Both the position numbers and the translations under genes were made by a program. The notes under the pieces were generated by a model that ran no database searches, was not told the origin of the DNA, and saw nothing but the letters and a program-made list of their open reading frames with translations. Of a DNA stretch of 64,000 bases, positions 22,872 to 61,653 are shown in pieces. Numbering within the stretch: the first letter of the stretch is position 1; the number at the start of each line of letters is the position of its first letter. Source of the DNA: an uncultured Planctomycetales bacterium (GTDB lineage Bacteria > Omnitrophota > Gorgyraeia > Aquiviventales > Aquiviventaceae); contig CAZKXY010000002.1 in assembly GCA_964556925.1 (NCBI GenBank), positions 1,953 to 65,952 of the forward strand, given 5' to 3'.

Positions 22872-24659
22872 ATGAGCGCGCATCACAAGGCGCCGGGATC
22901 GATCGCGCTGCTGATCGTGGCGATGAGCGCCCTGTTCTCACTCGCCATGTTTCGCGGCCTGGAACACAGCGCGGGCTACGGGGGGAGCGTATACCAGGTG
23001 TTGCACCCGGGCAGTTTTCCCGGCGACCGGTTTATGTCGCTCTTCCGTCCAACGATGGTGTCCGCCTATTATCTCCTGGTCAAGCTCGTGGGGGACGTGT
23101 GGTTGGATGACCGGTTTACCATCGTCGTGTTCGCCGCCCTTGCCGTGCTGGCGCTGGCCGGGGTGGACAAAACCGTCCAGCTCTTGGGGGGAAGGCGCAC
23201 CGGCGAGCGCGTCGCCATGCTGTCGTTGATCTTCGTGGCCCATCGGGTCCTCGACAACCAGGCGCAGCTCCTCGGCTCCGAGTTTAACGCGACGCTCTTC
23301 TCCAGCCCCCTGAACATCTGGCTGCTGTATTGGTGTCTCGCGGGTCCGCGGCCGCTGGTGGTGATCCCGTTGATGGTCCTGATCCTCTCCCTCTCTGTGA
23401 AAAACGGCTGGCTCCCTTGCCTCATTACCGGAGTGCTGCTCTGGAAAGAGCGATTGCGGCCTCGGGGTCAAGTGATCGCCGTTGCGGCCACCGGGCTGCT
23501 TGGGGTGCTCGCGTGGCTCGGCTATGCCGCGTTCCTGCGGCGGCCTGATGGCACCGATGTCGCGCTCTTTGATTATCTCCATCGCGAGCTGGAGAACGCT
23601 GAAGCCGATCCTTTTCTGAACCCCTTGGCCGCCAACTTGGTGTTCGTGGGTCTCTGTCTGGCAGGGATGATGGTGAAAGGCCTGCCGGATGCCGTCTCGG
23701 TCAGACTCCGGATCCTGGCCGGCACGGGGCTTGCGGTGTGGTTGGCGGGAGGGCTGTACCTTTCCTCTGCACCCGATCCGATCAAGATCCCCTACCTCGT
23801 CCCCCTTGACGTGACGAGGGCCTTGTGGTGGATCCAGTACGTGATGGGTGCAGCCCTTGGCGTGGCGCTGCTGAAGTGGTTGCAGCGCACCGCCTCCAGC
23901 GCAGGCGTGTGTGTGGCGTGGGGGCTGCTGATGGGGTTGTATCTGGTCCATGAGACGTTTCGAGCGAAGCTTGCCGCGGTGGTGGCCGTGGTCACCCTCG
24001 TGATGGTCGGGATGGCGTGGCGGCGAAACGTGTCAGACACCCTTCGACCTGTCGTCTCGCCGCGGGAAAAGTGCCTGGCACGTTTTGCTGGCCTGCCTGG
24101 CGTGTTGTCGGCCCGCACACGGCTTCGGATCGTGGCGGTCGCGATGTGCCTCGGGACGCTGAGTCTCTATAGCGTTGGCATCGTGCACCGCCGGTGGGAC
24201 GCCCTGGCCTTCTTGGTGCGCCACGGCATCGTGGGGGATAACAGCGGGGCCATCTGGGTCGAGGTCAATCCGTACATCCGGGAGCACACGCCTGCCTCCG
24301 CCACGGTCTTCGCGCTGGCGAGCCGAAACGCGCTCGGGGAGCCATGGGGCCTCCGGTATGAGGGCTCGTTGCGCAACCGGACAGGCCGGTCGATGCCGCT
24401 GGGCTCTGCCTCAGCGTTTTACGTTGACTACCAGGACGTCCAATGGCTCAAAGCCCAGCGCCGACATGTGCAGCTCGTGGTTGAGGCGTGGGAGCTCCAG
24501 GACCTTGCGGGCGTCTCGACGCATCTCGCGGCACTCGGATCCCCGGATTACCTCGTCGTTCCAATCGAGGAGTCTGCGTGGTTGCGCGAGCAACCGGATT
24601 TTGGCTATCAGTTTGAAACCGCGCGCGGAGCCTACGGCATCTTCCGCAGACGCTCATGA
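22872..24659 (+). CDS. polytopic membrane protein, paralog 1 (putative polymerase / GT-C-like)
   Basis: Many hydrophobic segments. Collinear with 26787-28535: MFRGLEHSAGYGGSVYQVLHPGSFPGDRFM vs MFRGLEPTSGYFGNAYQALHPDSFPDDPFM; YLLVKLVGDVWLDDRFTIVVF vs YLLVKLVGERWLDDRVTFVVF. Soluble C-terminal domain. Confidence 0.5.
   Translation: MSAHHKAPGSIALLIVAMSALFSLAMFRGLEHSAGYGGSVYQVLHPGSFPGDRFMSLFRPTMVSAYYLLVKLVGDVWLDDRFTIVVFAALAVLALAGVDKTVQLLGGRRTGERVAMLSLIFVAHRVLDNQAQLLGSEFNATLFSSPLNIWLLYWCLAGPRPLVVIPLMVLILSLSVKNGWLPCLITGVLLWKERLRPRGQVIAVAATGLLGVLAWLGYAAFLRRPDGTDVALFDYLHRELENAEADPFLNPLAANLVFVGLCLAGMMVKGLPDAVSVRLRILAGTGLAVWLAGGLYLSSAPDPIKIPYLVPLDVTRALWWIQYVMGAALGVALLKWLQRTASSAGVCVAWGLLMGLYLVHETFRAKLAAVVAVVTLVMVGMAWRRNVSDTLRPVVSPREKCLARFAGLPGVLSARTRLRIVAVAMCLGTLSLYSVGIVHRRWDALAFLVRHGIVGDNSGAIWVEVNPYIREHTPASATVFALASRNALGEPWGLRYEGSLRNRTGRSMPLGSASAFYVDYQDVQWLKAQRRHVQLVVEAWELQDLAGVSTHLAALGSPDYLVVPIEESAWLREQPDFGYQFETARGAYGIFRRRS
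24026..24086 (-). repeat. 61-bp double-palindrome repeat unit, inverted copy, embedded in-frame in the membrane-protein CDS
   Basis: The reverse complement AAAACGTGCCAGGCACTTTTCCCGCGGCGAGACGACAGGTCGAAGGGTGTCTGACACGTTT matches 45576-45636 at 53 of 61 positions (hand alignment, no gaps). The palindrome centres are 41 bp apart. Confidence 0.8.
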
Positions 24660-28548: not shown

Positions 28549-29607
28549 ATGCGCCGCCGCGCGCTGATTACCGGCGTGACCGGACAGGACGGCTCCTTCA
28601 TGGCGGAGTTTTTGCTGAGCAAGGGCTACGAGGTGTACGGCCTCAGCCGCCGTGGCCCGGACCCCGCCGCGGCTCCATCGAACGCGGGCCGGATCGATGT
28701 CCTCGGCGATCTCGCGGACGGCGCGCGCCTCGTCGAGGTCATGCAGGACACTCGGCCCCACGAGCTCTATCATCTCGGCGCCCAGTCGGACTCCAGGGTC
28801 AGCTTCGCGATCCCGGCCTACACGACCGACATCACCGGGCTGTCGACGCTGCGCCTGCTGGAGGCGATCCGGAGGGCGGATCCGGCGATCCGGTTCGTGC
28901 AGGCCTCAAGCTGCGAGATCTTCGGGGAGGCACCCCCGCCTCAGCATGAGGCCTCGCCCATGAACCCCAAGAACCCGTACGCGGTTGCGAAGCTTTACGC
29001 GTATCACCTGGCGCGCATCTATCGGGAGGCGCACGGGGTGTTTGCCGCAAGCGGCATCCTCTACAACCACGAGTCGCACCGCCGCGGAGAGGATCATGTC
29101 GCGCGCAAGATCACCCGCGGGATGGCCCGCATCCTCGCGGGCGAGCAGGAGACGATCGGGCTCGGCAGCCTGTCGGCCAGGCGGGACTGGGGCTATGCGC
29201 CGGAGTACGTCGAGGCGATGTGGGCCTTGCTGCAGCGGGACGCGCCTGACGACGTGGTGCTCGGCACCGGAGAGGATCACGCGGTCGCCGACTTTGTCGA
29301 TGTCGCGTTCGGCTATGTCGGGCTGCGCCGGGAGGGGCGCGTGACGACCGATCCGGAGCAGTGTCGGACCAGCGATGCCACGGTGCTGCGGGCGGATGGC
29401 TCGAAGGCCAGGCGCCTGCTCAACTGGGCGCCGAAGCTCTCGTTCGAGGAGCTGGTCAAGGTGCTCGTCGACGCGGACCTGAAGCTCGCCGGCCTCGACG
29501 TCATCGGCGAAGGCGTGGCGGCCGTCCGGCGGGCGGGGCTGGAGTGGAGCCTGGCCGGCCTGTTCGATGCCACGATGACGGGCGCCTCACGCGAGCGCGC
29601 GCGATGA
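28549..29607 (+). CDS. GDP-mannose-4,6-dehydratase-family enzyme (divergent paralog)
   Basis: ALITGVTGQDGSFMAEFLLSKGYEVYGLSRR, YAVAKLYAYHL, and ILYNHESHRRGEDHVARKIT (canonical [18 protein letters not shown]). 352 aa. Confidence 0.75.
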   Translation: MRRRALITGVTGQDGSFMAEFLLSKGYEVYGLSRRGPDPAAAPSNAGRIDVLGDLADGARLVEVMQDTRPHELYHLGAQSDSRVSFAIPAYTTDITGLSTLRLLEAIRRADPAIRFVQASSCEIFGEAPPPQHEASPMNPKNPYAVAKLYAYHLARIYREAHGVFAASGILYNHESHRRGEDHVARKITRGMARILAGEQETIGLGSLSARRDWGYAPEYVEAMWALLQRDAPDDVVLGTGEDHAVADFVDVAFGYVGLRREGRVTTDPEQCRTSDATVLRADGSKARRLLNWAPKLSFEELVKVLVDADLKLAGLDVIGEGVAAVRRAGLEWSLAGLFDATMTGASRERAR

Positions 29608-30965
29608 GCGGCTCCCAGGCGGCCCTCGAGCCGTGGATCCGGCAGGTCCAGGAGATCCACGCCTGTCGGATCTGCGGCAACCCGATCCTGTCGCCGGTCA
29701 TCGACCTGGGGCGCCAGGCCATCGCCGGCCTGTTCATCCCGCCCCATGTGGACGTCCTGCCCATCAGGGCGGGGCGGGCAGGCCGTGGGGCGGGGCTCAA
29801 CGACGGCCCGTCGGAGCATCACTGGGACGAGCCGATTCCGTTGCAGGTCGTCCGGTGCCAGGCGCAGCCCGGGCGGGCCTCCTGCGGCTTCGTCCAATTG
29901 CAGCACACCGTGCCGCCGTCGATCCTGTACCGGGACTACGGGTACCGCTCCGGCATCAACCCGATGATGCGGCGGCACCTCGAGGGGCTGGTGCGGGAGA
30001 TCGAATCGCGCATCCCGCTGCGCCGGGGCGATCTGGTCGTGGATATCGGGGCCAACGATGGCACGACGTTGCTCGCGTACCAGCAGGCGGGCCTCGTGAA
30101 GGTCGGCTTCGAGCCCTCCAACGTCCGGCCGGACGCCGAGGGCCACGGGATCGTGTACCTGCCGACGGTCTTCAGCCGGCGCGAGTTTGCGCGGCAGCTG
30201 CCGGGCCGGCGCGCGAAGGTCGTGACGAGCATCGCGATGTTCTATGACGTCGAGGCCCCGCGGGAGTTCTGCCGCGACGTCCACGGGATCCTGGCGGACG
30301 ACGGCGCCTGGGTGCTCGAGATGAGCTATCTGGGCGCGATGCTGGAGCATACCGCGTTTGACGCCATCTGCCATGAGCACCTCGGCTACTACAGCCTCCA
30401 CACGCTGCGGCGGCTGGTGGAGGAGGCCGGCTTCGCGTTCCAGGACATCACCTTCAACGAGGCGAACGGCGGCAGCCTCCGCTGCACCCTGGTCAAGCGC
30501 GACGGCGGGGTGCCGGTCCCGTCAGCCAACCAGGAGCGGATCGACGGCGCCTTCGCGGAAGAGCGCCGGCGCGGCTACGACACCCCGGCCCCCTACGCGA
30601 GGTTTCGGGCCAACGTCCAGCGCGTCCGGGAGGAGCTCCTGGGTCTTCTGGCCGAGCGGCGGCGATCGGGCCGGCGCCTCTTCGGCTACGGCGCCTCGAC
30701 GAAGGGCAACGTCCTCCTGCAGTACTGCGGCATCGGGCCGGAGACCCTGATCGCCATCGCGGATCGGAACCCGGCCAAGGTGGGCCGCACCACCTCGGGT
30801 AGCCGGATCCCGATTTGCTCAGAGGACGAGATGCGCCAGGCGCGTCCCGACGACCTCTTGGTCCTCCCCTGGCATTTTCTGGAGGAGTTTCTTGAGCGGG
30901 AACGGCCGCTGCGCGACGCGGGCACCAGGTTCATTGTCCCCCTGCCGCAGGTGCGGATCGTCTGA
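29604..30965 (+). CDS. NDP-hexose C-methyltransferase (TylCIII-like; Zn-ribbon + class-I MTase + C-terminal domain), no. 1
   Basis: N-terminal CRICGNPILSPVIDLGRQAIAGLF ... CGFVQLQHT, then VVDIGANDGTTL (SAM motif I), HEHLGYYSL and a C-terminal FIVPLP tail. Collinear with 44205-45446. Carries a ~45-aa insertion in the Zn-ribbon region. Confidence 0.7.
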   Translation: MSGSQAALEPWIRQVQEIHACRICGNPILSPVIDLGRQAIAGLFIPPHVDVLPIRAGRAGRGAGLNDGPSEHHWDEPIPLQVVRCQAQPGRASCGFVQLQHTVPPSILYRDYGYRSGINPMMRRHLEGLVREIESRIPLRRGDLVVDIGANDGTTLLAYQQAGLVKVGFEPSNVRPDAEGHGIVYLPTVFSRREFARQLPGRRAKVVTSIAMFYDVEAPREFCRDVHGILADDGAWVLEMSYLGAMLEHTAFDAICHEHLGYYSLHTLRRLVEEAGFAFQDITFNEANGGSLRCTLVKRDGGVPVPSANQERIDGAFAEERRRGYDTPAPYARFRANVQRVREELLGLLAERRRSGRRLFGYGASTKGNVLLQYCGIGPETLIAIADRNPAKVGRTTSGSRIPICSEDEMRQARPDDLLVLPWHFLEEFLERERPLRDAGTRFIVPLPQVRIV

Positions 30966-31018
30966 CATGAAGCCGAGACTTGCGGAGCGAAGCGAACGCA
31001 AGTCTCTGGCTGAAGGTC

Positions 31019-31118
31019 ACCCCACCACCTGTCTGCCTCCGCCGAAGGCGGAGGCTCGAGCGGCGGACAACGGTGACCGGTGCCGCCGGTGGCGGGACCG
31101 GAGGACAGGTGGTGGGGT
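31019..31118. repeat. 100-bp palindromic (MITE/REP-like) element with 15-bp perfect terminal inverted repeats
   Basis: ACCCCACCACCTGTC (31019-31033) and GACAGGTGGTGGGGT (31104-31118) are exact reverse complements. Internal hairpin GCCTCCGCC-GAA-GGCGGAGGC at 31035-31055. Lies in the 222-bp gap upstream of gmd. Confidence 0.8.
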
Positions 31119-31160
31119 TCAATTCGCACAGCAACGTACGTCGCCCTCCGGGCTCCGTAA

Positions 31161-32944
<1,784 letters not shown>

Positions 32945-33760: not shown

Positions 33761-34519
33761 ATGAGCGCGGTCGATGTGTTGCGCCCACCGGTCCGTCTGG
33801 TGAGGGCGTGGGTGCGCCGGCACAACGGGTGGCTCATCAACGACCTGCAGCGCCGCTACAACTTCAATCAGCTGCAGCGCTTTGACGCGGTGCTCACCCG
33901 GCACGGCCGCTCCTTCAGGACGTGCTCCTCGATCTTTGACTTCGGCTGCGGGCCCGGCCGGCTGACCCAACACCTCGCCGCGCTGGCACCGGCGGCCTCG
34001 GTGTTCGGGTGCGACGTGCGCCGCGAGGCGGTCGCCGAGTGCCGGCGGCGGTGCCCGTGGGGCCGCTTCGTGGTCAACCGCGCCACCCCGCCCCTTGACG
34101 TGGAGGATGCGGCCTTCGACCTCATCTATTCCTACAGCGTCTTCACGCATCTGACCGAGCCCAACCACAAGGCGTGGCTGAAGGAGCTGGCGCGGATGCT
34201 GCAACCCGGCGGGGTGATGCTGCACACCGTGCATTCCTATGAGTACCTCAGGCGGACCGCGGCCTTCAGCCCTGAGAGCCTGGAGAAGTACCGGTTCACC
34301 GAGCCGGTGGACTCGTTCATCCGCAGCGGCCGCGACTACCTCTATGTGGTGGATGATCCGGCCACGCCGGAATACGGCTATACCGTCATGCGCAAGGAGT
34401 ACGTGCTGGACATCTGGCCGCGCGAGTCCGGTCTGGCGCTGGTCGATTACGTGGAGGGCGCGATCGAGTCCTACCCCGAAGGATGCCAGGATCTCGTCGT
34501 GCTGCAGAAGGGCGGATGA
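33761..34519 (+). CDS. class-I SAM-dependent methyltransferase
   Basis: IFDFGCGPGRLTQHLA (motif I) and LIYSYSVFTHL...LKELARMLQPGGVML. AGGAGG SD upstream of the ATG at 33761. Confidence 0.7.
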   Translation: MSAVDVLRPPVRLVRAWVRRHNGWLINDLQRRYNFNQLQRFDAVLTRHGRSFRTCSSIFDFGCGPGRLTQHLAALAPAASVFGCDVRREAVAECRRRCPWGRFVVNRATPPLDVEDAAFDLIYSYSVFTHLTEPNHKAWLKELARMLQPGGVMLHTVHSYEYLRRTAAFSPESLEKYRFTEPVDSFIRSGRDYLYVVDDPATPEYGYTVMRKEYVLDIWPRESGLALVDYVEGAIESYPEGCQDLVVLQKGG

Positions 34520-34534
34520 CGCGCATGCTCGCCA

Positions 34535-34649
34535 GCTGCGGGTGGCCAGGCCTCCGCGCGCCGCTCAGCGAATGTTGCTGCGCCCGGCTCATGACGAAAG
34601 CTCGCAACATTCGAATTCGCGGCGCGCGGAGCGCCTGGCCACCCGCAGC
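34535..34649. repeat. 115-nt extended hairpin nested in cassette A
   Basis: GCTGCGGGTGGCCAGG (34535-34550) pairs perfectly with CCTGGCCACCCGCAGC (34634-34649). CTCCGCGCGCCGC pairs with GCGGCGCGCGGAG. The inner stem CGAATGTTGC (34569-34578) pairs with GCAACATTCG (34604-34613), with a 25-nt loop. Absent from cassette B. Confidence 0.75.
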
Positions 34650-34670
34650 CAGCGCGCGGCCGGTCGCTCA

Positions 34671-34730
34671 AAAGGTGTCTGACACCTTTCCCGACGCCAG
34701 ACGAGCGGTCGACAGGTGTCTGACACCTGT
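34671..34730. promoter_or_regulatory. two perfect 19-nt palindromes 41 bp apart (operator- or REP-like)
   Basis: AAAGGTGTC-T-GACACCTTT (34671-34689) and ACAGGTGTC-T-GACACCTGT (34712-34730). Located ~90 nt upstream of the KdsB-like start. Confidence 0.6.
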
Positions 34731-34816
34731 TGCGATGCGCAGCGGCCTGCCTGCCGGGCAGGCAGGCAGGACCCGGCGGGCTAGCGTTAGGCCGGCAGGC
34801 TGAGGCGGGTGGGGGG

Positions 34817-36703
34817 ATGAGCCGCGTGCGCGTCGCCGCCATCATCCCGGCCCGCCTGGCCTCGCGCCGGTTTCCGGGAAAGCCGCTCGTGCCGGTCCAC
34901 GGGCTGCCGATGGTCGAGCATGTCCGCAGGCGCGCCCTGTTGTGCGGCCGGTTCACCGAGGTCGTGGTGGCGACCTGCGATCACGAGATCCGCGACGCGG
35001 TCGAGCGGTTCGGCGGGCGGTGCGCGATGACCTCTCCCGAGCACCCGGCGGCGACCGACCGCGTGGCGGAGGCCGCGCGGTCGCTCGACTGCACGCACGT
35101 GGTCAACGTGCAGGGGGATGAGATCCTCGTGCTGCCGGCGGATCTGGCGGCGTTCGTGGAGGCGATCGAGTCGGATCCCACCACCCCGGCCTGGAACGCC
35201 CTCGGCCGGATCGAGCAGGCGGAGGCGCTGCGCGACCGCGGCGTGGTCAAGTGCGTCATCTCCGCGTCCAGGCGGATCCTGTGTTGCGCGAGGGATTTTT
35301 CGGCGCTGCCGCTCGACGGGGCCGGCGGATGGGAGCCGGTCCGGGTCATCCTGGGGATCCTCGGCTACCGGCGGGATCTCCTCGAGCGGTACGGCCGGCT
35401 GGCGCGGACCCCGCTGGAGCGCGCGGAGGCGATCGATCAGTCGCGGCTCCTTGAGCATGATCTCACGCTCCGGGGGGTTGAGTTCAGCCGGGGCTATCCG
35501 GCGATCAACGAGCCGCAGGATGTCGCGCGGGTGCAGGCGTCTCTCGCGCGCGATCCGGGGCAACAGGCCGTGCTGCAGCAGGTGTTGGGGTCCCCCCACC
35601 TGGGCGCCACCCCACCTGTCTCAGCGTCGCCTTCGGCGAAACCGCCACAGGGACGTGGGCCGCTGGGCCCGCCAGCGACGGCCCAGACAGGTGGGGGGGC
35701 CAGCACGGCGGAACGAGCCTTGGACGGCCTGCCAAAGGCAGGCCGAGCACAGGTGGGGGGACGTCCCATTGTCTACGTGACGTTGCAGCAGTTCTGCGAG
35801 TTCGATGACCGGCCCCGCGAGGCGCTGCGGGACGCCGGGTTTGAGGTCAGGGAAAACCGCGTCGGCCGGCGCCTGCGCCAGGAGGAGCTGCCGGAGCTGC
35901 TGCGGGAGGCGGAGGCCGTGCTCGCGGGGGTGGAACCCTATCGCGCCGAGCTGCTGGAGGGTCTGCCCAAGCTGCGCTGCATCAGCCGCTGCGGGGTGGG
36001 GACGGACGCGATCGACCTGGCGGCCGCCCGCCGGCGCGGCGTTGCGGTGTACACGACGCCGGATGAGGTGGTGGAGCCGGCCGCGCAGCTGACGGTCGCC
36101 ATGATGCTCGCGCTGGCGAGGAACCTGCCGTGGCATGCGAGCGAGAGCCGCCAAGGATTGTGGACCAAACGGACGGGCAGGCTGCTGTCGGAGTGGACCA
36201 TCGGGTTGCTGGGCTTTGGGCGGATCGGCCGGCTCGTGGAGCGCTACCTGCGGGCGTTCGGTCCCGGGATCCTGGTGCATGACCCCGCGGTGCGCGCGGA
36301 TCTCCCGCCGGGGGTGGTCTGGCGCGAGCTGGACCCCCTGCTGGCCGAGTCCGACCTCGTCTCGCTCCACGCCGCCCGCCGCGCCGAGGAGGGGCCGCTC
36401 ATCGGCCCCCGCGAGCTGGCCCTCATGAAGCCAGGCAGCCTGCTCGTCAACACGGCGCGGGGGTTCCTGGTGGACGAAGCGGCGCTCGAGCAGTCGTTGC
36501 GCGCCGGGCAGCTCGGCGGGGCCGCGCTCGACGTGTTCGCCGAGGAGCCCTACACCGGGCCGCTCGCGCGGCTGCCGAACGTGCTGTGCACGCCCCATGT
36601 GGCCTCGCTCACGCGCGCCTCGCGGGCGTCGATGGAGCGGCGGGCGGCCGCCAACATTGTGGCGCATGTCGCGCAGATGGCGCCGGCGGGGATGTCCGGG
36701 TGA
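34817..36703 (+). CDS. KdsB-like CMP-ulosonic-acid cytidylyltransferase read through into a D-isomer-specific 2-hydroxyacid dehydrogenase (single open frame)
   Basis: N-terminal VAAIIPARLASRRFPGKPLVPVHGLPMVEHV and VVNVQGDE are KdsB-like. The C-terminal part (from ~35768) has LLGFGRIGRLVERYL, VNTARGFLVDEAAL, LDVFAEEP and TPHVAS. The ~60-codon linker (35590-35765) is encoded by palindromic repeat DNA. An alternative internal start for the dehydrogenase is ATT 35768 or GTG 35777, after a GGTGGGGGG run. Confidence 0.65.
   Translation: MSRVRVAAIIPARLASRRFPGKPLVPVHGLPMVEHVRRRALLCGRFTEVVVATCDHEIRDAVERFGGRCAMTSPEHPAATDRVAEAARSLDCTHVVNVQGDEILVLPADLAAFVEAIESDPTTPAWNALGRIEQAEALRDRGVVKCVISASRRILCCARDFSALPLDGAGGWEPVRVILGILGYRRDLLERYGRLARTPLERAEAIDQSRLLEHDLTLRGVEFSRGYPAINEPQDVARVQASLARDPGQQAVLQQVLGSPHLGATPPVSASPSAKPPQGRGPLGPPATAQTGGGASTAERALDGLPKAGRAQVGGRPIVYVTLQQFCEFDDRPREALRDAGFEVRENRVGRRLRQEELPELLREAEAVLAGVEPYRAELLEGLPKLRCISRCGVGTDAIDLAAARRRGVAVYTTPDEVVEPAAQLTVAMMLALARNLPWHASESRQGLWTKRTGRLLSEWTIGLLGFGRIGRLVERYLRAFGPGILVHDPAVRADLPPGVVWRELDPLLAESDLVSLHAARRAEEGPLIGPRELALMKPGSLLVNTARGFLVDEAALEQSLRAGQLGGAALDVFAEEPYTGPLARLPNVLCTPHVASLTRASRASMERRAAANIVAHVAQMAPAGMSG
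35592..35760. repeat. nested CCCCACCTGTC-type palindromic element(s) inside the KdsB-like/dehydrogenase ORF
   Basis: Inner pair ACCCCACCTGTC (35609-35620) / GACAGGTGGGGGGG (35686-35699). Outer pair CCCCCCACCTGG (35592-35603) / CACAGGTGGGGGG (35748-35760). Hairpin GGCCTGCC-AAA-GGCAGGCC at 35726-35744. Same terminal motif as 31019-31118. Confidence 0.75.
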
Positions 36704-40382: not shown

Positions 40383-41761
40383 TGGACCGTGAGCGGCCGA
40401 GGGTGCTGTTCATCACGTTTGACGGGCTGCTGGAGCCGCTGGGGCAGTCGCAGATCCTCCCCTACCTCACGGGCTTGGCGGCGCGCGGGGCGGCCATCAC
40501 GGTGCTGTCCTTTGAGAAGCCGGCGGATTGGCGATCCGAGCGGATGGGCGCCTTGCGGGGCGAGATGGCCGCGCGCGGGGTGCGATGGACCGCGCTTCGC
40601 TACCACGCGCGGCCGCGGCTGGTGGCGAGCGCCTTCGATGTGCTGGCTGGCGCGGCCGTCGCCTGGCGGCTCATCCGCCGCGACCGGCTGGCCATCGTCC
40701 ATCCGCGCAGCTACCTCGCCGCGGCGATTGCCTGGCTCCTGAAGCGGCGTTTCGGATCGCGGCTGGTGTTCGACACGAAAGGGTTCTGGGTCGATGAGCG
40801 CGTCCAGGCCGGCTTCTGGGTCCCGGGCAGCCTGCCGTACCGCCTCGCGAAGCGGGTGGAGCAGCGGCTGCTCGAGGATGCGGATGAGATCGTCACGCTG
40901 ACGGAGCGCGGCCGGCGCATGATCGAGCAGTGGCCGGGGCTGCGCGAGCCCCGGGTGACCGCCGTGCCGACCTGCGTGGACCTGGCGCGGTTCGCCGGGC
41001 CTGGCCGGGCGACGGCGCCAAACGGCGCGCCGGTCTTCATCTATATCGGCTCGATCGGCCGCTATTACCTGCTGGACGAGATGCTCCGGTTCGTCGAGTG
41101 CTCCCGACGCCGGTTTCCCCAGGCGCGCTTCGTCTTGGTGACGCGGCAACAGGAGGAAGCGGCCGACGCGCTGGGGCGGACGGCGCTGGGCGCGGGGGCC
41201 GTCACGGTGGCGTCGGCGCCCTATCCCGAGATCCCGCAGTGGGTGGCGGGCTCGCATGCGGGCCTGGCGTTCTACAAGCCCGGGGGGTTCCGGCGCGGGA
41301 CGTGCCCGACGAAGCTCGGCGAATATCTGGCGATGGGCGTGCCCGTGGTGGTCAACGCAGGGATCGGGGATGTGGAAGAGGTCATCGGGGGCTCGGCGGT
41401 CGGCGCCATCGTCACGGACTTCTCCGTCGAGGCCTACGAGCGGGCGCTCGAGGAGCTCCGGCGGCTCTGGGCCGATCCGGCGCTCGCCGAGCGATGCCGG
41501 CGGGTCGCGGAGCGCGCCTTTTCCTTGCAGATGGGGATCGAGCGGTACTGGGCCATCTATGCGCGCCTCGCTGCGTTGTCGAACATCACCGTTACACAGG
41601 GCAGCGGGTCCTGCCACGGGCCAGCCCCACGGCCGTCCTCGCCGCGGCGCACGCTTCCGGCGCCGTCGGCTGCGGGCGGCGTGGGGCGCCCCGGCCCGTG
41701 TCACCCGCTGCCCAGCGGGTTTTCGACAAAGCAGCGCTTGGCCGCGAAGGGGAGCGCGTGA
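40382..41761 (+). CDS. GT4 (GT-B) glycosyltransferase with ~60-aa low-complexity C-terminal tail
   Basis: RVLFITFDGLLEPLGQSQILPYL and PTKLGEYLAMGVPVVV (EX7E region). The tail after ...YWAIYARLAA (from ~41570) is P/G/S/A-rich and overlaps inverted-repeat DNA, so the true C-terminus is uncertain. Confidence 0.7.
   Translation: MDRERPRVLFITFDGLLEPLGQSQILPYLTGLAARGAAITVLSFEKPADWRSERMGALRGEMAARGVRWTALRYHARPRLVASAFDVLAGAAVAWRLIRRDRLAIVHPRSYLAAAIAWLLKRRFGSRLVFDTKGFWVDERVQAGFWVPGSLPYRLAKRVEQRLLEDADEIVTLTERGRRMIEQWPGLREPRVTAVPTCVDLARFAGPGRATAPNGAPVFIYIGSIGRYYLLDEMLRFVECSRRRFPQARFVLVTRQQEEAADALGRTALGAGAVTVASAPYPEIPQWVAGSHAGLAFYKPGGFRRGTCPTKLGEYLAMGVPVVVNAGIGDVEEVIGGSAVGAIVTDFSVEAYERALEELRRLWADPALAERCRRVAERAFSLQMGIERYWAIYARLAALSNITVTQGSGSCHGPAPRPSSPRRTLPAPSAAGGVGRPGPCHPLPSGFSTKQRLAAKGSA
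41703..41724 (+). terminator. weak intrinsic-terminator-like hairpin + T-run inside the GT4 tail
   Basis: ACCCGCTG-CC-CAGCGGGT followed by TTT(C). It is also the distal arm of a longer inverted repeat with CAGCGGGTCCTGCCACGGGCC at 41602-41622. 37 nt upstream of rfbF. The T-run is short and the hairpin lies inside an open frame. Confidence 0.25.
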
Positions 41762-44204: not shown

Positions 44205-45446
44205 ATGCCTGCGCACACGCGCTGCCGCATCTGCGAGACCACGTTGCCTGCGCCGTTTCTCGATCTGGGCGAGATGGCGCTCGCCAACGCGTTCCTCGCC
44301 TCGCCGGCGGAGTTCGCGCAGGAGCCCCGGTATCCGCTGGCGGTGGCGGGCTGCCCCGGATGCGGCCTGGTCCAGCTGACCCAGGTGGTGCCGGCGGAGC
44401 AGCTCTACCGGCACTACGTGTACGTCTCCTCCACCTCGGAGGCGGTGCGCCGCTACGCCCAGGAGCTGGCCGCGCGGATCGTGGGGCGCTTTCGCTTGAC
44501 GCCGTCACAGCGGGTGGTGGAGCTGGGCAGCAACGACGGGTTGGTGTTGCTGGCCGTCCAGCGCCTCGGGGTGCAGGTGCTCGGGGTGGAGCCGGCGCGC
44601 AACATCGCGGCCGTGGCCAGGGCGAACGGCGTGCCGACCGTTGACGAGTTCTTCACGGCGGCCACCGCCGGCCGCCTCGCGGCCGCCGAAGGCCGCGCGT
44701 CGGTGATCCTGGGCCGCCACGTGTTCGCCCACATCGATGACCTGCACGATTTTTTTGCGGGCATCGACGCGTTGCTGGCGCCGGACGGGGCGCTGCTCAT
44801 CGAAGTCCCGTATCTCGGGACCCTGATCGAGCAGCTGGAGTTTGACACGATCTACCATGAGCACCTGTCCTATCTGGCGCTCGGGCCGATGACCGCGATC
44901 TGCCGGCGGCACGGCTTTGACGTGGCGGATGTCGAGCCGGTGGCGCTCCACGGCGGCTCGGTGCTGTTCACGGTCCAGCGCGCCGGCCCGAGCCTCGCCG
45001 TCTCGCCGCGCGTCGAGGCGATGCGCCGAAAGGAGCAGGCCCTGCGCGTGAGCGATCCCGCCACCCTGCGCGCGTTCGCGCAGCGGGTCGCCGCCTGGAA
45101 GCAGGGGTTCGAATCCTGCGTGGAGCGATTGGTCGATCAGGGCGCGCGGCTCGCCGGCTACGGCGCGGCGGCCAAGGCGAACACCCTGCTGAACTACTGC
45201 CCGGGCGTGGCCAGGCGGCTCACGTGCCTGCTGGACCGCAGCCCGCACAAGCAGGGCCGGTTGACGCCGGGCGCGCACCTGCCGGTCGTCGACCCGGATC
45301 GCTGGGAGGCCGACGGCACCTCGCACCTGCTCATCCTCGCCTGGAATTTCAAGGACGAGATCATGCGGCAGATGCGGCCGTTCGCCGAGCGGGGCGGCCG
45401 GTTCGTGATCCCGATTCCGACGCCCGAGGTCGTGTCAGTCGGATGA
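44205..45446 (+). CDS. NDP-hexose C-methyltransferase (TylCIII-like), no. 2
   Basis: CRICETTLPAPFLDLGEMALANAF...CPGCGLVQL (Zn ribbon), VVELGSNDGLVL (motif I), YHEHLSYL and a C-terminal FVIPIP tail. Confidence 0.75.
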   Translation: MPAHTRCRICETTLPAPFLDLGEMALANAFLASPAEFAQEPRYPLAVAGCPGCGLVQLTQVVPAEQLYRHYVYVSSTSEAVRRYAQELAARIVGRFRLTPSQRVVELGSNDGLVLLAVQRLGVQVLGVEPARNIAAVARANGVPTVDEFFTAATAGRLAAAEGRASVILGRHVFAHIDDLHDFFAGIDALLAPDGALLIEVPYLGTLIEQLEFDTIYHEHLSYLALGPMTAICRRHGFDVADVEPVALHGGSVLFTVQRAGPSLAVSPRVEAMRRKEQALRVSDPATLRAFAQRVAAWKQGFESCVERLVDQGARLAGYGAAAKANTLLNYCPGVARRLTCLLDRSPHKQGRLTPGAHLPVVDPDRWEADGTSHLLILAWNFKDEIMRQMRPFAERGGRFVIPIPTPEVVSVG

Positions 45447-45720
45447 CGCGCATGCCCGCCAGCTGCGGGGTGGGCTCGCCTGCGGGGCGCGGCGTCGCTC
45501 CGGCCGCCCAGCGTGCGGCCGGTCGCTCAAAAGGTGTCAGATACTGCTCTGTCGAAAAGCCGCGGTTCCAGAGCAAAAAGTGTCAGACACGTTTCCCGCT
45601 GCGAGACGACAGGTCAAAAGGTGTCTGACACTTTTTGCGATGCGCAGCGGCCTGCCGGCCAGGCAGGACCCGGCGGGCTAGCGTTAGACCGGCGGGCTGA
45701 GGTGGGGAGAGGATGACGCG
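45441..45720 (+). repeat. composite intergenic cassette B flanked by a perfect 10-bp direct repeat GGATGACGCG
   Basis: GGATGACGCG at 45441-45450 contains the upstream TGA. The same 10-mer at 45711-45720 contains the downstream ATG. The two copies are 270 bp apart. The interior is homologous to cassette A and carries three GTGTC-N-GACAC half-palindromic sites centred at 45539, 45585 and 45626. Confidence 0.8.
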
Positions 45721-46618
45721 GGTGCTGGTGATCGGGGCGGCAGGCCAGCTCGGGCGCGCCCTGTGCGAGGCGCTCCGGCAGGCGCAGCATGAGGTGGTCG
45801 AAAGCGTCCGCCGCGCACCGCAGCCAGGCCAGCTCTGCGTGGATCTCGAGGCGCCTGCTGATGCGATCGCGGCGGTGCGGCGGTGTGCGCCGGACTGGAT
45901 CCTGATCGCCGGCGCCTTCTGCAATGTGGACCTGGCCGAGACGGAAGCCGCTCGATGTCGCACGGTGAACGTGGAAGGCCCCCGGGCCATCGCCGCCTAC
46001 GCCCAGGCCGCTGGCTGCCGGGTGGTCTATTACTCCACCGACCAGGTCTTTGATGGGACGCGCGAGTCGTGCCGGGAGACGGATCCCGTCAACCCGCTGA
46101 ATGCGTACGCGCAGAGCAAGGCCCAGGGCGAAGCGGCGATCCGATCGGCGCTTCCGGATCGGCATCTCATTCTCCGAAGCGCGTGGCTCTACGGCCCGGA
46201 CCCGGCACGGCGCAACTTCGCGCTGCGCCTCATCGACACGCTCAGCGCCGGATCTGCCGTGCGCGTGCCGTCGGATCAGTGGGGGACCCCGACGTACACG
46301 GAGGATCTGGCCGAGGTGACGCGGTTCCTGATGGCGCGCGGCCGGTGCGGGACGCTCCACGCCACCGGGCCGGAGCTCATCGATCGGGTCTCGCTGGCCC
46401 GGCGCATCTGCGCCGCTTTCGAGCTAGATGAGCGCCAGGTGGTGCCGACCCCGACCGCCCAGCTGCGGCAGCCGGCCAGACGCGCCCTGCGCGTCCGGCT
46501 GGAAGGCGGGGCGCTTCAGGCGGTCGGTGCCGGGCCGCTGCGAGGGGTTGAGGAGGGGCTGGCCGCGCTGCGCCAGTGGCAGAGAAACAGTGCCTGGCCC
46601 GTTTCCATCGTCGGATGA
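45713..46618 (+). CDS. NDP-4-dehydro-6-deoxyhexose reductase (RmlD-like)
   Basis: VLVIGAAGQLGRAL, YYSTDQVFDG and NAYAQSKAQGE (YxxxK). Confidence 0.8.
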   Translation: MTRVLVIGAAGQLGRALCEALRQAQHEVVESVRRAPQPGQLCVDLEAPADAIAAVRRCAPDWILIAGAFCNVDLAETEAARCRTVNVEGPRAIAAYAQAAGCRVVYYSTDQVFDGTRESCRETDPVNPLNAYAQSKAQGEAAIRSALPDRHLILRSAWLYGPDPARRNFALRLIDTLSAGSAVRVPSDQWGTPTYTEDLAEVTRFLMARGRCGTLHATGPELIDRVSLARRICAAFELDERQVVPTPTAQLRQPARRALRVRLEGGALQAVGAGPLRGVEEGLAALRQWQRNSAWPVSIVG

Positions 46619-47692: not shown

Positions 47693-48799
47693 GTGAAGCT
47701 TCGGCTCTTAGACTGGCTGGCCTGCCCGGATTGCGGCGGGCCGGTCGAGGCGGAGGCGTTCAGGCGGGATGACGCCAGCGGCGAGATCGAGGAGGGGCTG
47801 CTGCGCAGCGGCTGCGGGCGGGTCTACCCGGTGGTCCAGGCGATCCCGCGCATGCTCGATGAAGGCGTGGAGCTGTTCCCCGAATTTGCCAGGCGGTACG
47901 CGGATCGGCTGCCGCCGGAGCGCCGCCAACCGGCCGGCGGCAGGTTTTCCGTGTCCGAGCGGTTGATCCGCCGCACCATGGAGAGCTTCGGCTACCAGTG
48001 GACGCTCTTCCCGGAGATGGTCATCGATTTCCGGGAGAATTTCCTCCGGTACATGGAGCCGTTGACGGAGTCCTTTTTCCGCGGGAAAGTCGGCATCGAC
48101 CTCGGCTGCGGCTTCGGCCGGCATGTCTACAACGCGGCCCAGTGCGGGGCGGAGATGGTCGGCGTGGACTTAAGCCGCGCCATCGATGCCGCGCGGCGGA
48201 ACACCCGGCGACTGGCCAACGTCCATCTCGTCCAGGCCAATCTGTACCGCCTGCCGTTCCGGCGGCAGTGCTTCGATTTCGCCTACAGCCTCGGGGTCCT
48301 GCATCACCTCCCTGATCCCGAGCGGGGGTTTGCGTGCCTGTGGCCGCTGGTCAAGCCGGGCGGCACCGTGCTCATCTGGGTCTACAGCAAGAGCCGGCGG
48401 GTGACCAATTGGCTGCTGGAGACCGTCCGCGGCATCACGACCCGCCTCTCCGCACGGGCGCAGACGGCCATCGCCTATGCGTGCGCCGCGGCGGACTGGT
48501 CGCTGTTCATCGCGCCGTACCGGATCGGATCGCGCCTGCCCGTGATCGGCCGCCTCGTGGACCAAATCACCTTTCCTCGGCTCAAAGTCTACAGCGCGTA
48601 CCCCTTCCAAGTCGTCTGCGCGGACTGGCTCGACCGCCTGACGGCGCCCATCCGGTTTTACTACGACGGGCAGGATTTGGACGGCTGGTTCCGGCGGGCC
48701 GGACTGGATCAGATCCGGGTCCACGCGACCGGCTTGTTCGGTTGGACGGCCTGCGGGCAGACCGCGCCGACTGAGCACCCGTCCCCTATCCCGTCATGA
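47693..48799 (+). CDS. Trm112-like Zn-ribbon + class-I SAM methyltransferase
   Basis: LLDWLACPDCGG...YPVVQAIPRML (Trm112p-like) then GIDLGCGFGRHV (motif I). GTG start 7 nt after GAGGAG. Confidence 0.7.
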   Translation: MKLRLLDWLACPDCGGPVEAEAFRRDDASGEIEEGLLRSGCGRVYPVVQAIPRMLDEGVELFPEFARRYADRLPPERRQPAGGRFSVSERLIRRTMESFGYQWTLFPEMVIDFRENFLRYMEPLTESFFRGKVGIDLGCGFGRHVYNAAQCGAEMVGVDLSRAIDAARRNTRRLANVHLVQANLYRLPFRRQCFDFAYSLGVLHHLPDPERGFACLWPLVKPGGTVLIWVYSKSRRVTNWLLETVRGITTRLSARAQTAIAYACAAADWSLFIAPYRIGSRLPVIGRLVDQITFPRLKVYSAYPFQVVCADWLDRLTAPIRFYYDGQDLDGWFRRAGLDQIRVHATGLFGWTACGQTAPTEHPSPIPS

Positions 48800-51498
48800 C
48801 GAGTCTCGTGTCCATCGTCTGCGTCTCCGCAGGAATCGTGGTGGCCGGCAGTGGGCTGCTCTGGTGGCTCGCGCGCGCGCCGGATGATCGGCGGCTGCGC
48901 CCCATCCTGCTCACCTCGTTCTGGATTCGGGCGTCGCTGGGGATCGCGCTCTACGCCATCTCCTTCCAGCACTGGCCCATCCTGCCCTCCCTGCACGTCC
49001 AAGACGGGTTCTGGACCTTTGCGCTCGACGCCCGCCTCTACCATTCCTGGGGCGTCACGATCGCCGAGGCCTGGCAACATGGCATCGAGCTGCCTGATTC
49101 GGGAGCCACGTACGACTATTACGCGATCATCGCGGCGATCTACCGGCTGCTCGGAGCCCACCCGCTCTACGCGATTCTGCTGCACGCCTGGCTCGGGGCG
49201 CTGACCGGATGGCTGGCGTACCGTATCGGCCAGCGGCTCTTCGACGCGCGGAGCGCCTTGCGTGGGGCGCTCCTCGTGAGTTTTTGGCCCTCATCGGTGC
49301 TCTGGTCCACCCAGATCCTCAGGGATTCAATCAGTTGGTCTCTCATCCTGGCCGTCCTGTGGCTGGTCGCCCTGATGGTTGGACCGGATGCCCGGCCCCT
49401 TCGCGTCCGGGGATGGCGGTGGGCGCTGCAGGCCGCGGCCCTTGCCGGCGCGACCATCCTGCTGGCACGGCTCCGGGTCTACCTGGGCCCCATCCTGGTC
49501 GTGACGGCGCTTGTGACGCTTGTCCCGGCTGGCTTCATGAACCGTCGGGTGGGCCGGCCTCTGTGGCGCACCATCTCGCTGATCAGCCGCCGGGTGGGCC
49601 GGCCTCTGTGGCGCACCATCTCGCTGATCAGCCGCCGGGTGGGCCGGCCCATCTGGCGTTGTGCCCGCCTCATCCGCCGTCCGGTCGTTCAGGCCGCATG
49701 GCCGGCAAGCGTGGCGGCCCTGGTGATCATCGCCGTGGTGGTGGCGAGGGATCTGGATACGACCCGGCTCGTCTCGCCAGCGCATCCTGAGGAAGGGCAC
49801 GTCAGGCTCGGCCTGCAGCATCAGCGGTCCGGCGATCTCGCGCAGGCGGAGGTGGAGTTCAAACGGGCGATCCAGCTCCGGGCGGACTACCAGCCGGCCT
49901 ACCGGCTGTTGGCAGACCTGTTGTCCAAGGCGAACCGGCCGGAGGAGGCGCTTGAGGTCTGCGCGAGTTGGCCAGGCGCCGACGACGATGGCGCGATGCG
50001 CCAGTGCGTCAGCCAGCTCAAGGCTCGCTTGAGCGAGCAGGCGCTTGTCCGGAAGCCGGATGCCACGCAGGCGGCGCCGGCGGTGCCGCCTGCCATGGCG
50101 CAGGCGCCCGCAGCCCCCCAGGCGCCTGGAGAGATGGGAGTCGCTCCCCCATCGCCCGCCACCAGCGCGCGCCTCGGACCGAAGCCACGCCGACGCCGCT
50201 GGGGGAAGAATACGCCGCCTGAGGTGGAGGCCGGGCCGGCCCAGAGCGTTCCCGATCCCCAGTCGGTGGTCCTGAAGGGGGAGGTGGTCGATGACGGGCG
50301 GCCCACCAACACCCTGACGTACCACTGGACCCAGATCTTCGGCCCGGCCCCCGCGCGCTTCGCCACCCCCAACGCCCTGGAGACCAGGGTGGAGCTGCCC
50401 GCGCGCGGGCGCTATAACTTCTATTTCACCGCCTCGGATGGGGACCTCAGCGGCTTCGATGGGCTCTTCGTCACCGTAGAACCGCTCCCAAATACGCCGC
50501 CGAAGGTGGAGGCCGGGCCGGCCCAGAGCGTTCCCGATCCCCAGTCGGTGGTCCTGAAGGGGGAGGTGGTCGATGACGGGCGGCCCACCAACACCCTGAC
50601 GTACCACTGGACCCAGATCTTCGGCCCGGCCCCCGCGCGCTTCGCCACCCCCAACGCCCTGGAGACCAGGGTGGAGCTGCCCGCGCGCGGGCGCTATAAC
50701 TTCTATTTCACCGCCTCGGATGGGGACCTCAGCGGCTTCGATGGGCTCTTCGTCACCGTGGAGGGCTTCCCGGTGCTGGCAGCGCCCCCGACCGAAACCC
50801 AGCCTCGCCTCGCCCTCCACCCCCCGTCAACCGCCCCCCTCATGACCCGGCTGATCACCCAGGGGATGGCCGTGGTGCATGAGATGAGCCCCCAGTGGCT
50901 CTCGTCCCTTCGGACCAGCGTCGTCATGGGCGGCGGCGAGTTGATGGACGCGCAGAAGGAGATCTTGCAGCCGTTCGACCTGATCACCTATCTGCCCCGC
51001 GCGCTGCTCGTGGGGTTTCTCGCCCCGTTTCCGCAGCAGTGGTTCGATACCAGCGGCAGCACGGGGGCGATGCGGCTCTTCGCGGGGGTGGAGATGGCCG
51101 TGAGCTATCTGCTCCTGATCGGGCTCGTGCTGCGCGCCTGGCGAGCGATCCGTCTGTTTGGGCCGATCGGCTGCGTCCGGCTCGCGATCCGGCGGATGCC
51201 GCTTGGGGGGTGGTTCCTCCTCGTCTACGGCCTGGTCATGGGGGCAGGCGTGTCCCTCGTCATGGCGAACATGGGGACGCTCTTCCGGATCCGGCTGCTG
51301 TTCTGGCTGCCGTTGCTCATCCTGGTGGCGGCCGCGGATCCGCTCGGCAGCTCCCGGTGGCGCCAATGGCTCAGTCGCTGGATCGCGCGATGGCGCGGCG
51401 GGCGTCCCGCCCAAGTCATGAAGCCGGAACCGGTCGGCGAGCCAACACCCGTGACGACCTCCATGGAACCGGTCGCCGGCGCGCGGGAGCCACGCTGA
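48796..51498 (+). CDS. GT-C (ArnT/PMT, GT39-like) membrane glycosyltransferase with TPR segment and two identical PKD/Ig-like domains
   Basis: The N-terminal multi-TM region (YYAIIAAIYRLLGAHPLYAILLHAWLGALTGWLAYRIGQRLF...LLVSFWPSSVLWSTQILRDS) looks GT39-like. It also has a TPR-like GDLAQAEVEFKRAIQLRADYQPAYRLLADLL. Two tandem 94-aa repeats match a PKD-like pattern (VEAGPAQSV...L.GEVVDDG...LTYHWTQIFGP...G.Y.F.FTASDG). More TM helices at the C-terminus. Confidence 0.6.
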   Translation: MTSLVSIVCVSAGIVVAGSGLLWWLARAPDDRRLRPILLTSFWIRASLGIALYAISFQHWPILPSLHVQDGFWTFALDARLYHSWGVTIAEAWQHGIELPDSGATYDYYAIIAAIYRLLGAHPLYAILLHAWLGALTGWLAYRIGQRLFDARSALRGALLVSFWPSSVLWSTQILRDSISWSLILAVLWLVALMVGPDARPLRVRGWRWALQAAALAGATILLARLRVYLGPILVVTALVTLVPAGFMNRRVGRPLWRTISLISRRVGRPLWRTISLISRRVGRPIWRCARLIRRPVVQAAWPASVAALVIIAVVVARDLDTTRLVSPAHPEEGHVRLGLQHQRSGDLAQAEVEFKRAIQLRADYQPAYRLLADLLSKANRPEEALEVCASWPGADDDGAMRQCVSQLKARLSEQALVRKPDATQAAPAVPPAMAQAPAAPQAPGEMGVAPPSPATSARLGPKPRRRRWGKNTPPEVEAGPAQSVPDPQSVVLKGEVVDDGRPTNTLTYHWTQIFGPAPARFATPNALETRVELPARGRYNFYFTASDGDLSGFDGLFVTVEPLPNTPPKVEAGPAQSVPDPQSVVLKGEVVDDGRPTNTLTYHWTQIFGPAPARFATPNALETRVELPARGRYNFYFTASDGDLSGFDGLFVTVEGFPVLAAPPTETQPRLALHPPSTAPLMTRLITQGMAVVHEMSPQWLSSLRTSVVMGGGELMDAQKEILQPFDLITYLPRALLVGFLAPFPQQWFDTSGSTGAMRLFAGVEMAVSYLLLIGLVLRAWRAIRLFGPIGCVRLAIRRMPLGGWFLLVYGLVMGAGVSLVMANMGTLFRIRLLFWLPLLILVAAADPLGSSRWRQWLSRWIARWRGGRPAQVMKPEPVGEPTPVTTSMEPVAGAREPR
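49546..49660 (+). repeat. 45-bp tandem repeat x ~2.5 inside the GT-C gene
   Basis: CGGGTGGGCCGGCCTCTGTGGCGCACCATCTCGCTGATCAGCCGC begins at 49546, 49591 and (diverging) 49636. It encodes RRVGRPLWRTISLIS repeated. Confidence 0.85.
50209..50772 (+). repeat. 282-bp tandem duplication (2 copies) inside the GT-C gene
   Basis: The copies start at 50209 and 50491. A central ~255-bp stretch is identical by eye. Differences occur only in the first ~12 and last ~18 nt. Each copy encodes one 94-aa PKD/Ig-like domain. Confidence 0.9.
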
Positions 51499-61540: not shown

Positions 61541-61559
61541 GGCGCTGTCGGGCACGGCG

Positions 61560-61653
61560 GTTCGAGCGGCGAGGACGCCGTGGGGTGCGCGGCGGCCTGT
61601 CTGCCCGGCAGGCAGGCAGGACCCGCTGCCAGGCGACTGTTCGAGCGAGGAGA
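61560..61653 (+). repeat. short hairpin element flanked by direct repeat GTTCGAGCG(GC)GAGGA
   Basis: GTTCGAGCGGCGAGGA (61560-61575) and GTTCGAGCGAGGAGA (61639-61653). They flank CCTGTCTGCC-C-GGCAGGCAGG(CAGG) at 61596-61620. That is the same hairpin family as 34746-34770 and 45651-45667. Confidence 0.65.

Follow-up and report, generated by a model that had tools for sequence, protein, structure and literature searches.

The Correia elements of Neisseria are transcribed together with adjacent genes, and RNase III, an enzyme with an established requirement for a duplex of about 20 bp, cleaves their hairpins. The malE-malF junction is an example of where repetitive extragenic palindromic (REP) sequences and bacterial interspersed mosaic elements (BIMEs) may act in mRNA stability or termination. 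In enterobacteria and pseudomonads REP sequences and BIMEs are co-transcribed, and roles in mRNA stability and termination have been proposed for them (Di Nocera et al. 2013, PMC3733652). The window analysed here is a stretch of 64,000 nt from an uncultured Planctomycetales bacterium that the GTDB lineage places in the Omnitrophota (GCA_964556925.1, contig CAZKXY010000002.1, positions 1,953 to 65,952). It contains a structured intercistronic segment, cassette A (34514-34820), and a relative of it, cassette B (45441-45720), both of which had been picked out by an earlier description made without database searches (the sequence-only reading). Cassette A is probably a non-coding mosaic of the REP, BIME or miniature inverted-repeat transposable element (MITE) kind that was inserted at an ATGA gene junction and is transcribed with its operon.

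Cassette A and its probable insertion site

All called genes in the window, which has a GC content of about 69%, lie on the + strand in a very long cluster of polysaccharide type, where an ATGA overlap joins most genes to the next. The metagenome sample with this contig, JGI 3300009444, is also among those that yielded Rokubacteria bins of 66-71% GC (bioRxiv 10.1101/176263), and on GC content an assignment to that group would be possible. Cassette A, also read on the + strand, makes a 297-nt spacer between the stop codon of a methyltransferase gene and the start codon of the next gene. The sequence-only reading had noted GGATGA at both ends of the cassette, on the stop and on the start codon, and this was borne out: the left copy (34514-34519) includes the TGA stop (34517-34519) of the 252-aa methyltransferase, and the right copy (34815-34820) includes the ATG start (34817-34819) of a 628-aa CTP_transf_3 and 2-Hacid_dh gene.

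The same junction is found without a spacer at locus L158 (GCA_964561685.1), where the orthologous methyltransferase is 65% identical, more than six genes stand in the same order and the stop of the methyltransferase gene shares bases with the start of the cytidylyltransferase gene (TGATG). Compared with L158, neither protein has lost its end at this junction in the window, the C-terminus of the methyltransferase reading …EGCQDLVVLQKGG versus …EGCQDLVLLRTAGS and the N-terminus of its neighbour MSRVRVAAIIPAR versus MDRVRVAAVIPAR. The ten bases that end at the stop agree at nine of ten positions with the ten that end at the ATGA of the start (GGGCGGATGA versus GGGGGGATGA), and the two sides of cassette B bear identical 10-nt direct repeats (10/10), GGATGACGCG, at 45441-45450 and 45711-45720. 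The end repeats of both cassettes coincide with the ATGA junction and with a common left flank, GGATGACGCGCATGC. An ATGA stop precedes five of the six cassettes as compared with 24% of 214 predicted genes (binomial p ~0.004). Furthermore, an 81%-identical relative (L195:1073-1212) carries an unrelated 128-nt spacer at the same junction, between GGGATGA and GGGATGA, and the part that it has in common with cassette A is confined to the last ~20 nt (TGAGGCG..GGGGG.GGGATGA). The methyltransferase junction thus seems to be a recurrent insertion site. We read these cassettes as apparent insertions that hit junctions of the ATGA type and duplicated them. Other insertions would not survive selection, nor would these if they were oriented so that no Shine-Dalgarno sequence was brought in. 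For cassette B an empty site was not found. A gene pair in locus L157 was considered for this role and rejected, as it is orthologous to a different methyltransferase/epimerase pair of the window (29604-32174).

Architecture of cassette A and fold of its hairpin

Between its two GGATGA copies cassette A is made up of a succession of blocks. The remainder of the 5' block, CGCGCATGCTCGCCA (34520-34534), ends in GCTCGCCA, which is the left flank common to two modules termed H and V. It is followed by module H (34535-34649), a 115-nt hairpin, and by a mid block, CAGCGCGCGGCCGGTCGCT (34650-34668), that comes after an H or a V module in other cassettes. The core of module K (34669-34733) holds two GGTGTCTGACACC palindromes, at 34674-34686 and 34715-34727, 41 nt apart, and the hairpin of module T, CCTGCCTGCC / GGCAGGCAGG (34736-34775), has its stem at 34744-34755 / 34761-34772. 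The 3' block (34776-34814) contains the direct repeat CCGGCRGGCT and a purine-rich Shine-Dalgarno stretch, GAGGCGGGTGGGGGG; it is common to cassette B and in part to a cassette in locus L134, and its last ~20 nt are those found in L195.

H folds into a 17-bp outer stem (34535-34551 / 34633-34649), a 1-nt bulge (C 34632), a 13-bp middle stem (34552-34564 / 34619-34631), a 4x5 internal loop and a 10-bp inner stem (34569-34578 / 34604-34613) that is closed by an apical part at about 34579-34603. Its energy of -94.6 kcal/mol compares with -51.7 +/- 3.7 kcal/mol for shuffled sequences (z = -11.65; 0 of 200 shuffles as stable). The sequence-only reading had described a three-tier hairpin of 115 nt at 34535-34649, and its three stems stand as described, with 13 and 10 bp in the inner two, except that the outer stem is of 17 and not 16 bp. 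The reverse strand is as stable as the forward one (-95.7 kcal/mol), and H is therefore a DNA palindrome without structural strand preference.

The modules as dispersed repeats

A scan of metagenomes with the K-core pattern returned 35 loci (numbered here with the prefix L), which after reduction of duplicates gave, together with the window, 308 kb of non-redundant sequence; having been fetched by the K-core pattern, this sample is enriched for K. It is the sample to which the following counts refer. Loci from three metagenome samples duplicate one another at 99.9-100% identity. The other contigs and the window appear to come from one organism, judged by shared repeats, GC content and co-occurrence and not by binning. 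Dispersed repeat modules account for the whole of cassette A. H is present in three copies, V in at least six and K in 33; going by match depth along cassettes A and B, the K core has about 32 other copies, T 5-7 and the mid block 3-4.

The two copies of H elsewhere lie at L142:1236-1341, between a permease gene and a hypothetical gene, and at L145:7148-7251 (reverse strand), between a UbiA-type prenyltransferase gene and a gene encoding a CxxxC thioredoxin-like motif. They are ~90% identical to H over 105-107 nt. Across the three copies the arms and the inner stem are almost invariant and the apical ~15 nt are different in each. In the L145 copy the outermost pairs are altered on both arms (GGAGGCGGG / CCCGCCTCC versus GCTGCGGG / CCCGCAGC), with an additional 14-bp stem outside them. 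The flanks of H are inverted copies of each other that differ between loci, and no direct target duplication is seen around it. The sequence-only reading had taken the hairpin for a separate palindromic element, and would have given this up had the arm been unique in the genome; recurrence at two other loci supports the idea.

Module V attains a match depth of 4-5, and targeted searches located at least six copies (L146, L134, L152/L129, L153, L135 and L142). In L142 and L135 another segment is inserted into it, always at one point. H and V share their flanks, CGCC.GCTGCGGG to the left and CCAGCG.GCGGCCGGTCGCTC to the right, and their interiors have no significant similarity (208 of 500 composition shuffles score equally well), which makes them look like alternative modules filling one slot. 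The same shuffle-level similarity rules out V as a deleted form of H. In cassette A the remnants of V around H are the outer flanks only (CGCCAGCTGCGGG ... CCAGCG).

Module K has a 60-nt core with two GGTGTCWGACACC palindromes that pair into one hairpin of -30.2 kcal/mol; the T hairpin has an energy of -25.7 kcal/mol. The palindrome GTGTCWGACAC occurs 120 times, and its GGTGTCWGACACC units come in two arrangements, with a spacing of 28 nt (27 doublets) or of 41 nt (33 K cores). The 28-nt doublets, GGTGTCAGACACCTTTC ... GAAAGGTGTCTGACACC, form a hairpin with 17-bp arms and are mostly located directly after stop codons; some of them (e.g. L142:1893-1950, L148:2651-2700 and L154:8848-8900) are then followed by a T run and a TTGACA promoter. 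These doublets look like the common terminator or REPIN-like unit (REPINs being hairpin-forming pairs of REP sequences) of this organism.

Two contig ends fall inside V and mid-block repeats, the end of L152 (8284-8396) and the start of L129 (1-77), and it appears that the repeats break the assemblies there.

Cassette B and further cassettes

Cassettes A and B have three segments in common, a 5' block of 29 nt (97% identity), the GCGGCCGGTCGCTCAAAAGGTGTC block of 31 nt (97%) and a 3' part of 137 nt (83%), which confirms the proposal of the sequence-only reading that they belong to one family. In cassette B, on the + strand, V (45457-45507) is followed by the mid block, a left-half M element (described below) from 45545, a hybrid K core (45572-45640), the T hairpin and the 3' block. 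The nested half element occupies 45545-45640, with the left end of M joined to the K core, and this core has M-type variants (GTTTCCCGCT) in its left half and cassette-type variants (TTTTTGCGATG) in its right half. The hybrid looks like the outcome of an M insertion followed by recombination between K cores. As to the sequence that cassette B has in place of the hairpin, the sequence-only reading rightly found no relation to the hairpin, although the segment is itself a repeat, namely V. The simple nested insertion in A, or deletion in B, that had been suggested on this basis does not hold as stated, as B carries a different repeat module in that position. Neither A nor B can be taken as the plain version, each being its own combination of modules repeated throughout the genome.

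The order V, mid block, K, T and then GGCAGGACCCGGCGGGC recurs at three further loci: L134:9790-10004, between a VitK2_biosynth (MqnA-like) gene and a radical-SAM gene; L146:2429-2633, between an FGGY kinase (glpK-like) gene and a glycerol-3-phosphate-oxidase-type (glpD-like) gene; and L142:6223-6480, between exbD and tonB. All five cassettes and all three H copies are co-oriented with their co-directional flanking genes. The presence of cassettes in operons of unrelated function argues against a specific riboswitch or leader.

A third, shorter intercistronic element of the window (61541-61653, + strand) likewise has an ATGA stop before it and an ATGA start after it. The T hairpin (61586-61625, 92.5% identical to that of A) is all that it has in common with the cassettes, and positions 61633-61651 at its right end weakly resemble the right inverted end of M, with 4 mismatches. 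An inverted K copy (24019-24092, - strand), 88% identical to that of B, is in frame inside the 595-aa membrane-protein open reading frame (ORF) 22872-24659; its GC content at third codon positions is 0.58 as compared with 0.77-0.86 and 0.79 on either side in the same frame.

A MITE-like element

Most K cores form the centre of an element M, TGCTCTGTCGAACAGCCGC ... GCGGCTGTTCGACAGAGCA, which has inverted ends of 19-20 bp with TG...CA termini. It is exactly 123 nt long in all 16 complete copies (L125:1335-1457, L135:5272-5394, L147:5073-5195, L156:999-1121 and 12 more), and the window contains only its left half, that of cassette B. Target duplications of 9 bp are perfect in five copies and match at 8/9 positions in two. 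M therefore has the features of a MITE, with terminal inverted repeats, uniform length and direct target duplication. Its targets are mostly the centres of AAAGGTGTCWGACACCTTT-type palindromes, among them one that lies within a different M copy (L156). In three copies the 9-nt flanks are perfect inverted repeats of each other, a pattern that might be explained by two insertions, into both units of a doublet, and subsequent recombination between the M copies. To judge from these sequences, a transposition activity that leaves 9-bp duplications exists in this genome. No autonomous insertion sequence with the inverted repeats of M and no matching transposase were found in the 308 kb, where all paired ends are 123 nt apart.

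A stretch of ~160 nt at 41571-41733, within the 3' end of a called 459-aa glycosyltransferase gene, has M-like inverted ends (TGCGTTGTCGAACATCACC ... GCGGGTTTTCGACAAAGCA) and a different interior.

Possible function and alternative explanations

It is proposed that the mosaic was inserted, or was built by successive insertions and recombination, at a former overlap or direct abutment of the methyltransferase stop with the cytidylyltransferase start. The (GG)ATGA now at both ends would have kept both genes intact, the 3' end of the cassette would provide the Shine-Dalgarno stretch for the downstream gene, and H would be an independent repeat in the slot that V occupies in other cassettes. Scans of 34300-35000 and 45300-45900 yielded no promoter-like (sigma-70-like) or terminator-like sites. 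The view of the sequence-only reading that the hairpin, if transcribed, would be a strong transcriptional or RNA-stability signal is plausible, but no site of either sort accompanies it. An intrinsic terminator, in the sense of a GC-rich hairpin and then a T run, is not seen; H is followed by CAGCGCGCGG. With neither promoter nor intrinsic terminator of its own, cassette A is therefore most likely transcribed within the operon. Three stable hairpins (H, K and T) would then form in the operon mRNA. The 30-bp H duplex would be a natural substrate for RNase III, given the length that this enzyme needs, and the hairpins would block 3' exonucleases or slow them down, in the manner of REP and Correia elements. 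Independent initiation at the Shine-Dalgarno stretch supplied would take the place of translational coupling. The net effect could be a segmental mRNA stability, or it could be near neutral, and cassette A may even be largely neutral and selfish.

Several points weigh against this interpretation. The structure of H alone cannot mark RNA as the relevant form, both strands folding equally well, and covariation in H is thin, with two clearly two-sided outer-stem pairs of the five flagged in the alignment fold of only three copies. The origin of the other contigs from the same organism is inferred and does not come from binning, and co-transcription, RNase III cleavage and the effect on stability are likewise inferred. 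The left flank GGATGACGCGCATGC is identical in A and B, which would be explained by copying from one site to the other, or by a preferred target, no less well than by independent transposition. Finally, the cassette as a whole is without terminal inverted repeats like those of M; it may have moved as a unit or been assembled in place.

The cassettes could instead be selected regulatory devices, either intra-operon attenuators or operator arrays in which proteins bind pairs of GGTGTCWGACACC and tune the downstream genes; in the operator version the palindromes, 41 nt apart, would be separated by about four helical turns. This would agree with the strict co-orientation of cassettes and flanking genes, with the conserved 3' end that bears the Shine-Dalgarno sequence and with the TTTTTG that follows the K hairpin in B, L134 and L146, as well as with the terminator-like position of free doublets directly after stops, several of which (L142:1899, L148:2651 and L154:8848) precede TTGACA promoters. 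However, copies reside in operons of unrelated function, one K copy is in frame inside a gene, the same units are both the interior and the targets of a MITE, and no terminator-like site in A or B passes the scan. Simple selection would also produce the orientation bias, a Shine-Dalgarno sequence being supplied in one orientation only. A regulatory device is thus unlikely. Somewhat less likely still is a literal nested insertion, in which H would be a miniature transposon that entered a pre-existing B-like cassette. H does have conserved arms and different neighbours at its three loci, and the V slot holds another inserted segment in L142 and L135, but beyond the common outer flanks there is no V sequence beside H, and its flanks are inverted copies that differ between loci in place of a direct target duplication.

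That cassette A encodes a small protein or a discrete, possibly antisense, small RNA is very improbable. An ATG-started ORF of 95 codons (34516-34803) does run through it and its structure is strong on both strands, yet the spacings of the blocks differ between A and B by 68 and 46 nt, so that the frame is not kept, which rules out the coding interpretation. Neither strand has a promoter-like site. Rfam gave no match at gathering thresholds in the whole window; in a relaxed search the best, and only, matches for the cassette were plant miRNA-precursor models, which are generic long-hairpin models, at 44 bits and thus far below their thresholds of at least 90. There is practically no chance that the hairpin arose as an artefact of assembly, for example by chimeric fold-back. 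Assemblers sometimes produce long perfect palindromes, but cassette A is 100% identical across three independent metagenome assemblies, JGI 3300009444 (Ga0114945_10000045), JGI 3300022563 and ENA ERZ27245685, and is therefore not such an artefact; the diverged copies of H at two other loci likewise refute it. A non-coding mosaic of dispersed palindromic repeats, probably carried within the operon transcript, remains the preferred explanation.

The palindrome in other phyla

A scan of a genome collection for two GTGTCWGACAC units 20-40 nt apart retrieved at least 118 loci (L004-L121). Among the matches listed are Achromobacter/Bordetella, Gaiellales/Thermoleophilia, Omnitrophota, Planctomycetota, Bacteroidota, Spirochaetota, Bacillota and others, and each lineage has its paired palindromes in repeat arrays with flanks of their own. 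The bases just outside the 11-mer (+/-6) are G...C in 81 of the 118 listed loci and those at +/-7 are random, which speaks for a real 13-mer. It could be imagined that GGTGTCWGACACC is the recognition core of an undescribed super-family of hairpin repeats that spans phyla and depends on a transposition system aimed at the tips of hairpins, with the cassettes as operon-compatible mobile spacers. Such a spacer would insert at ATGA overlaps, have both codons rebuilt by target duplication and bring its own ribosome-binding site. In viral contigs, however, three control palindromes gave 4, 9 and 18 paired matches versus 4 for GGTGTCWGACACC; paired palindromes of any sequence are therefore common. 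With the controls equalling or exceeding GGTGTCWGACACC, and with ~45 of the first 80 named loci coming from two clades, a super-family of this breadth is doubtful.

Other repeats in the window and their implications

Further stretches of the window were recorded beside the cassettes. In the gene downstream of cassette A, CTP_transf_3 and 2-Hacid_dh are fused by a low-complexity linker of ~60 aa (~35590-35770), whereas L157 and L158 have two overlapping genes. The DNA of the linker is rich in palindromes (CCCCCCACCTG ... CAGGTGGGGGGG; GGCCTGCC...GGCAGGCC) and has an 82% match to L122:245-332; it may be another repeat that was inserted in frame at a former junction. A 222-nt spacer (30966-31187) leads from a Methyltransf_13/14 gene to an epimerase gene, where the syntenic L157 has 16 nt, and it has no match in the 308-kb sample. 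The 900-aa ORF 48796-51498 contains both a 272-nt segment in tandem (50209-50762, 99% identity, 282-nt spacing) and three 45-nt tandem repeats (49537-49671).

Overall, nested palindromic repeats are plentiful and apparently active in this uncultured high-GC bacterium. They split operon junctions, insert in frame into proteins and seem, in one instance, to have joined two genes into one. Unusually long spacers, interrupted contigs and fused genes that annotators meet in metagenome-assembled genomes of this type are explained in this way. The cassettes also offer natural test cases of how an operon copes with 300 nt of structured sequence at a junction where translation is coupled. As the types of element are familiar, the general lesson is modest.

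Comparison with known repeat systems

Some candidate systems were set aside. The RYYYAAC / GTTRRRY motifs of integron attC sites, read by eye, are absent at the ends of H (GCTGCGGG / CCCGCAGC), the 64 kb hold only three cassettes, and there is no integrase family among the called genes. The REP classes of Di Nocera et al. (2013) and the 'Bor' repeats of Petrillo (2006), as described in the text of these papers, gave no match; a text search of the literature for the palindrome GGTGTCWGACACC returned primers only.

The closest resemblance is to REP sequences and BIMEs, which are likewise short palindromic units in many copies that form variable mosaics after genes and between the cistrons of operons. 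The organism has a many-copy short palindrome (120 in 308 kb) and intercistronic mosaics (5-6 cassettes aligned). The sequences are unrelated, however, and the 115-nt hairpin with its 30-bp arms is much longer than a REP. According to the text of the review, the GTAG and CGTC super-families of REP have an unpaired tag at the end of an 8-13-bp stem and a CCA-type tail (Di Nocera et al. 2013). The units described here are instead flanked by A and T runs, and the CGTC in the K spacer is 12 nt from the stem. Within the ~308 kb of genome no REP-associated tyrosine transposase (RAYT) gene was seen. The doublets, with 27 copies at a spacing of 28 nt, are similar to REPINs in being inverted pairs that form one long hairpin, and K is the same doublet with a longer loop; they differ from REPINs in that each arm is itself a palindrome.

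M recalls IS1397 and ISKpn1, insertion sequences that enter REP palindromes, in its insertion into palindrome centres, although it is a non-autonomous element of 123 nt, and no transposase gene to match it turned up in the 308 kb examined. The K copy in frame within a protein gene (24019-24092) is reminiscent of the Rickettsia palindromic elements, from which it differs in sequence and host and in that most copies here are intergenic. The terminal inverted repeats of M with their TG...CA ends, its fixed length and its target duplications are shared with the Correia/nemis MITEs of Neisseria, with the difference that its duplications are of 9 bp and not TA and that it targets palindrome centres, while H is without target duplication. 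Correia elements serve as the model for what H may do in the transcript. The repeat families of cassette A are new and organism-specific, whereas the kind of element that they represent is already known.

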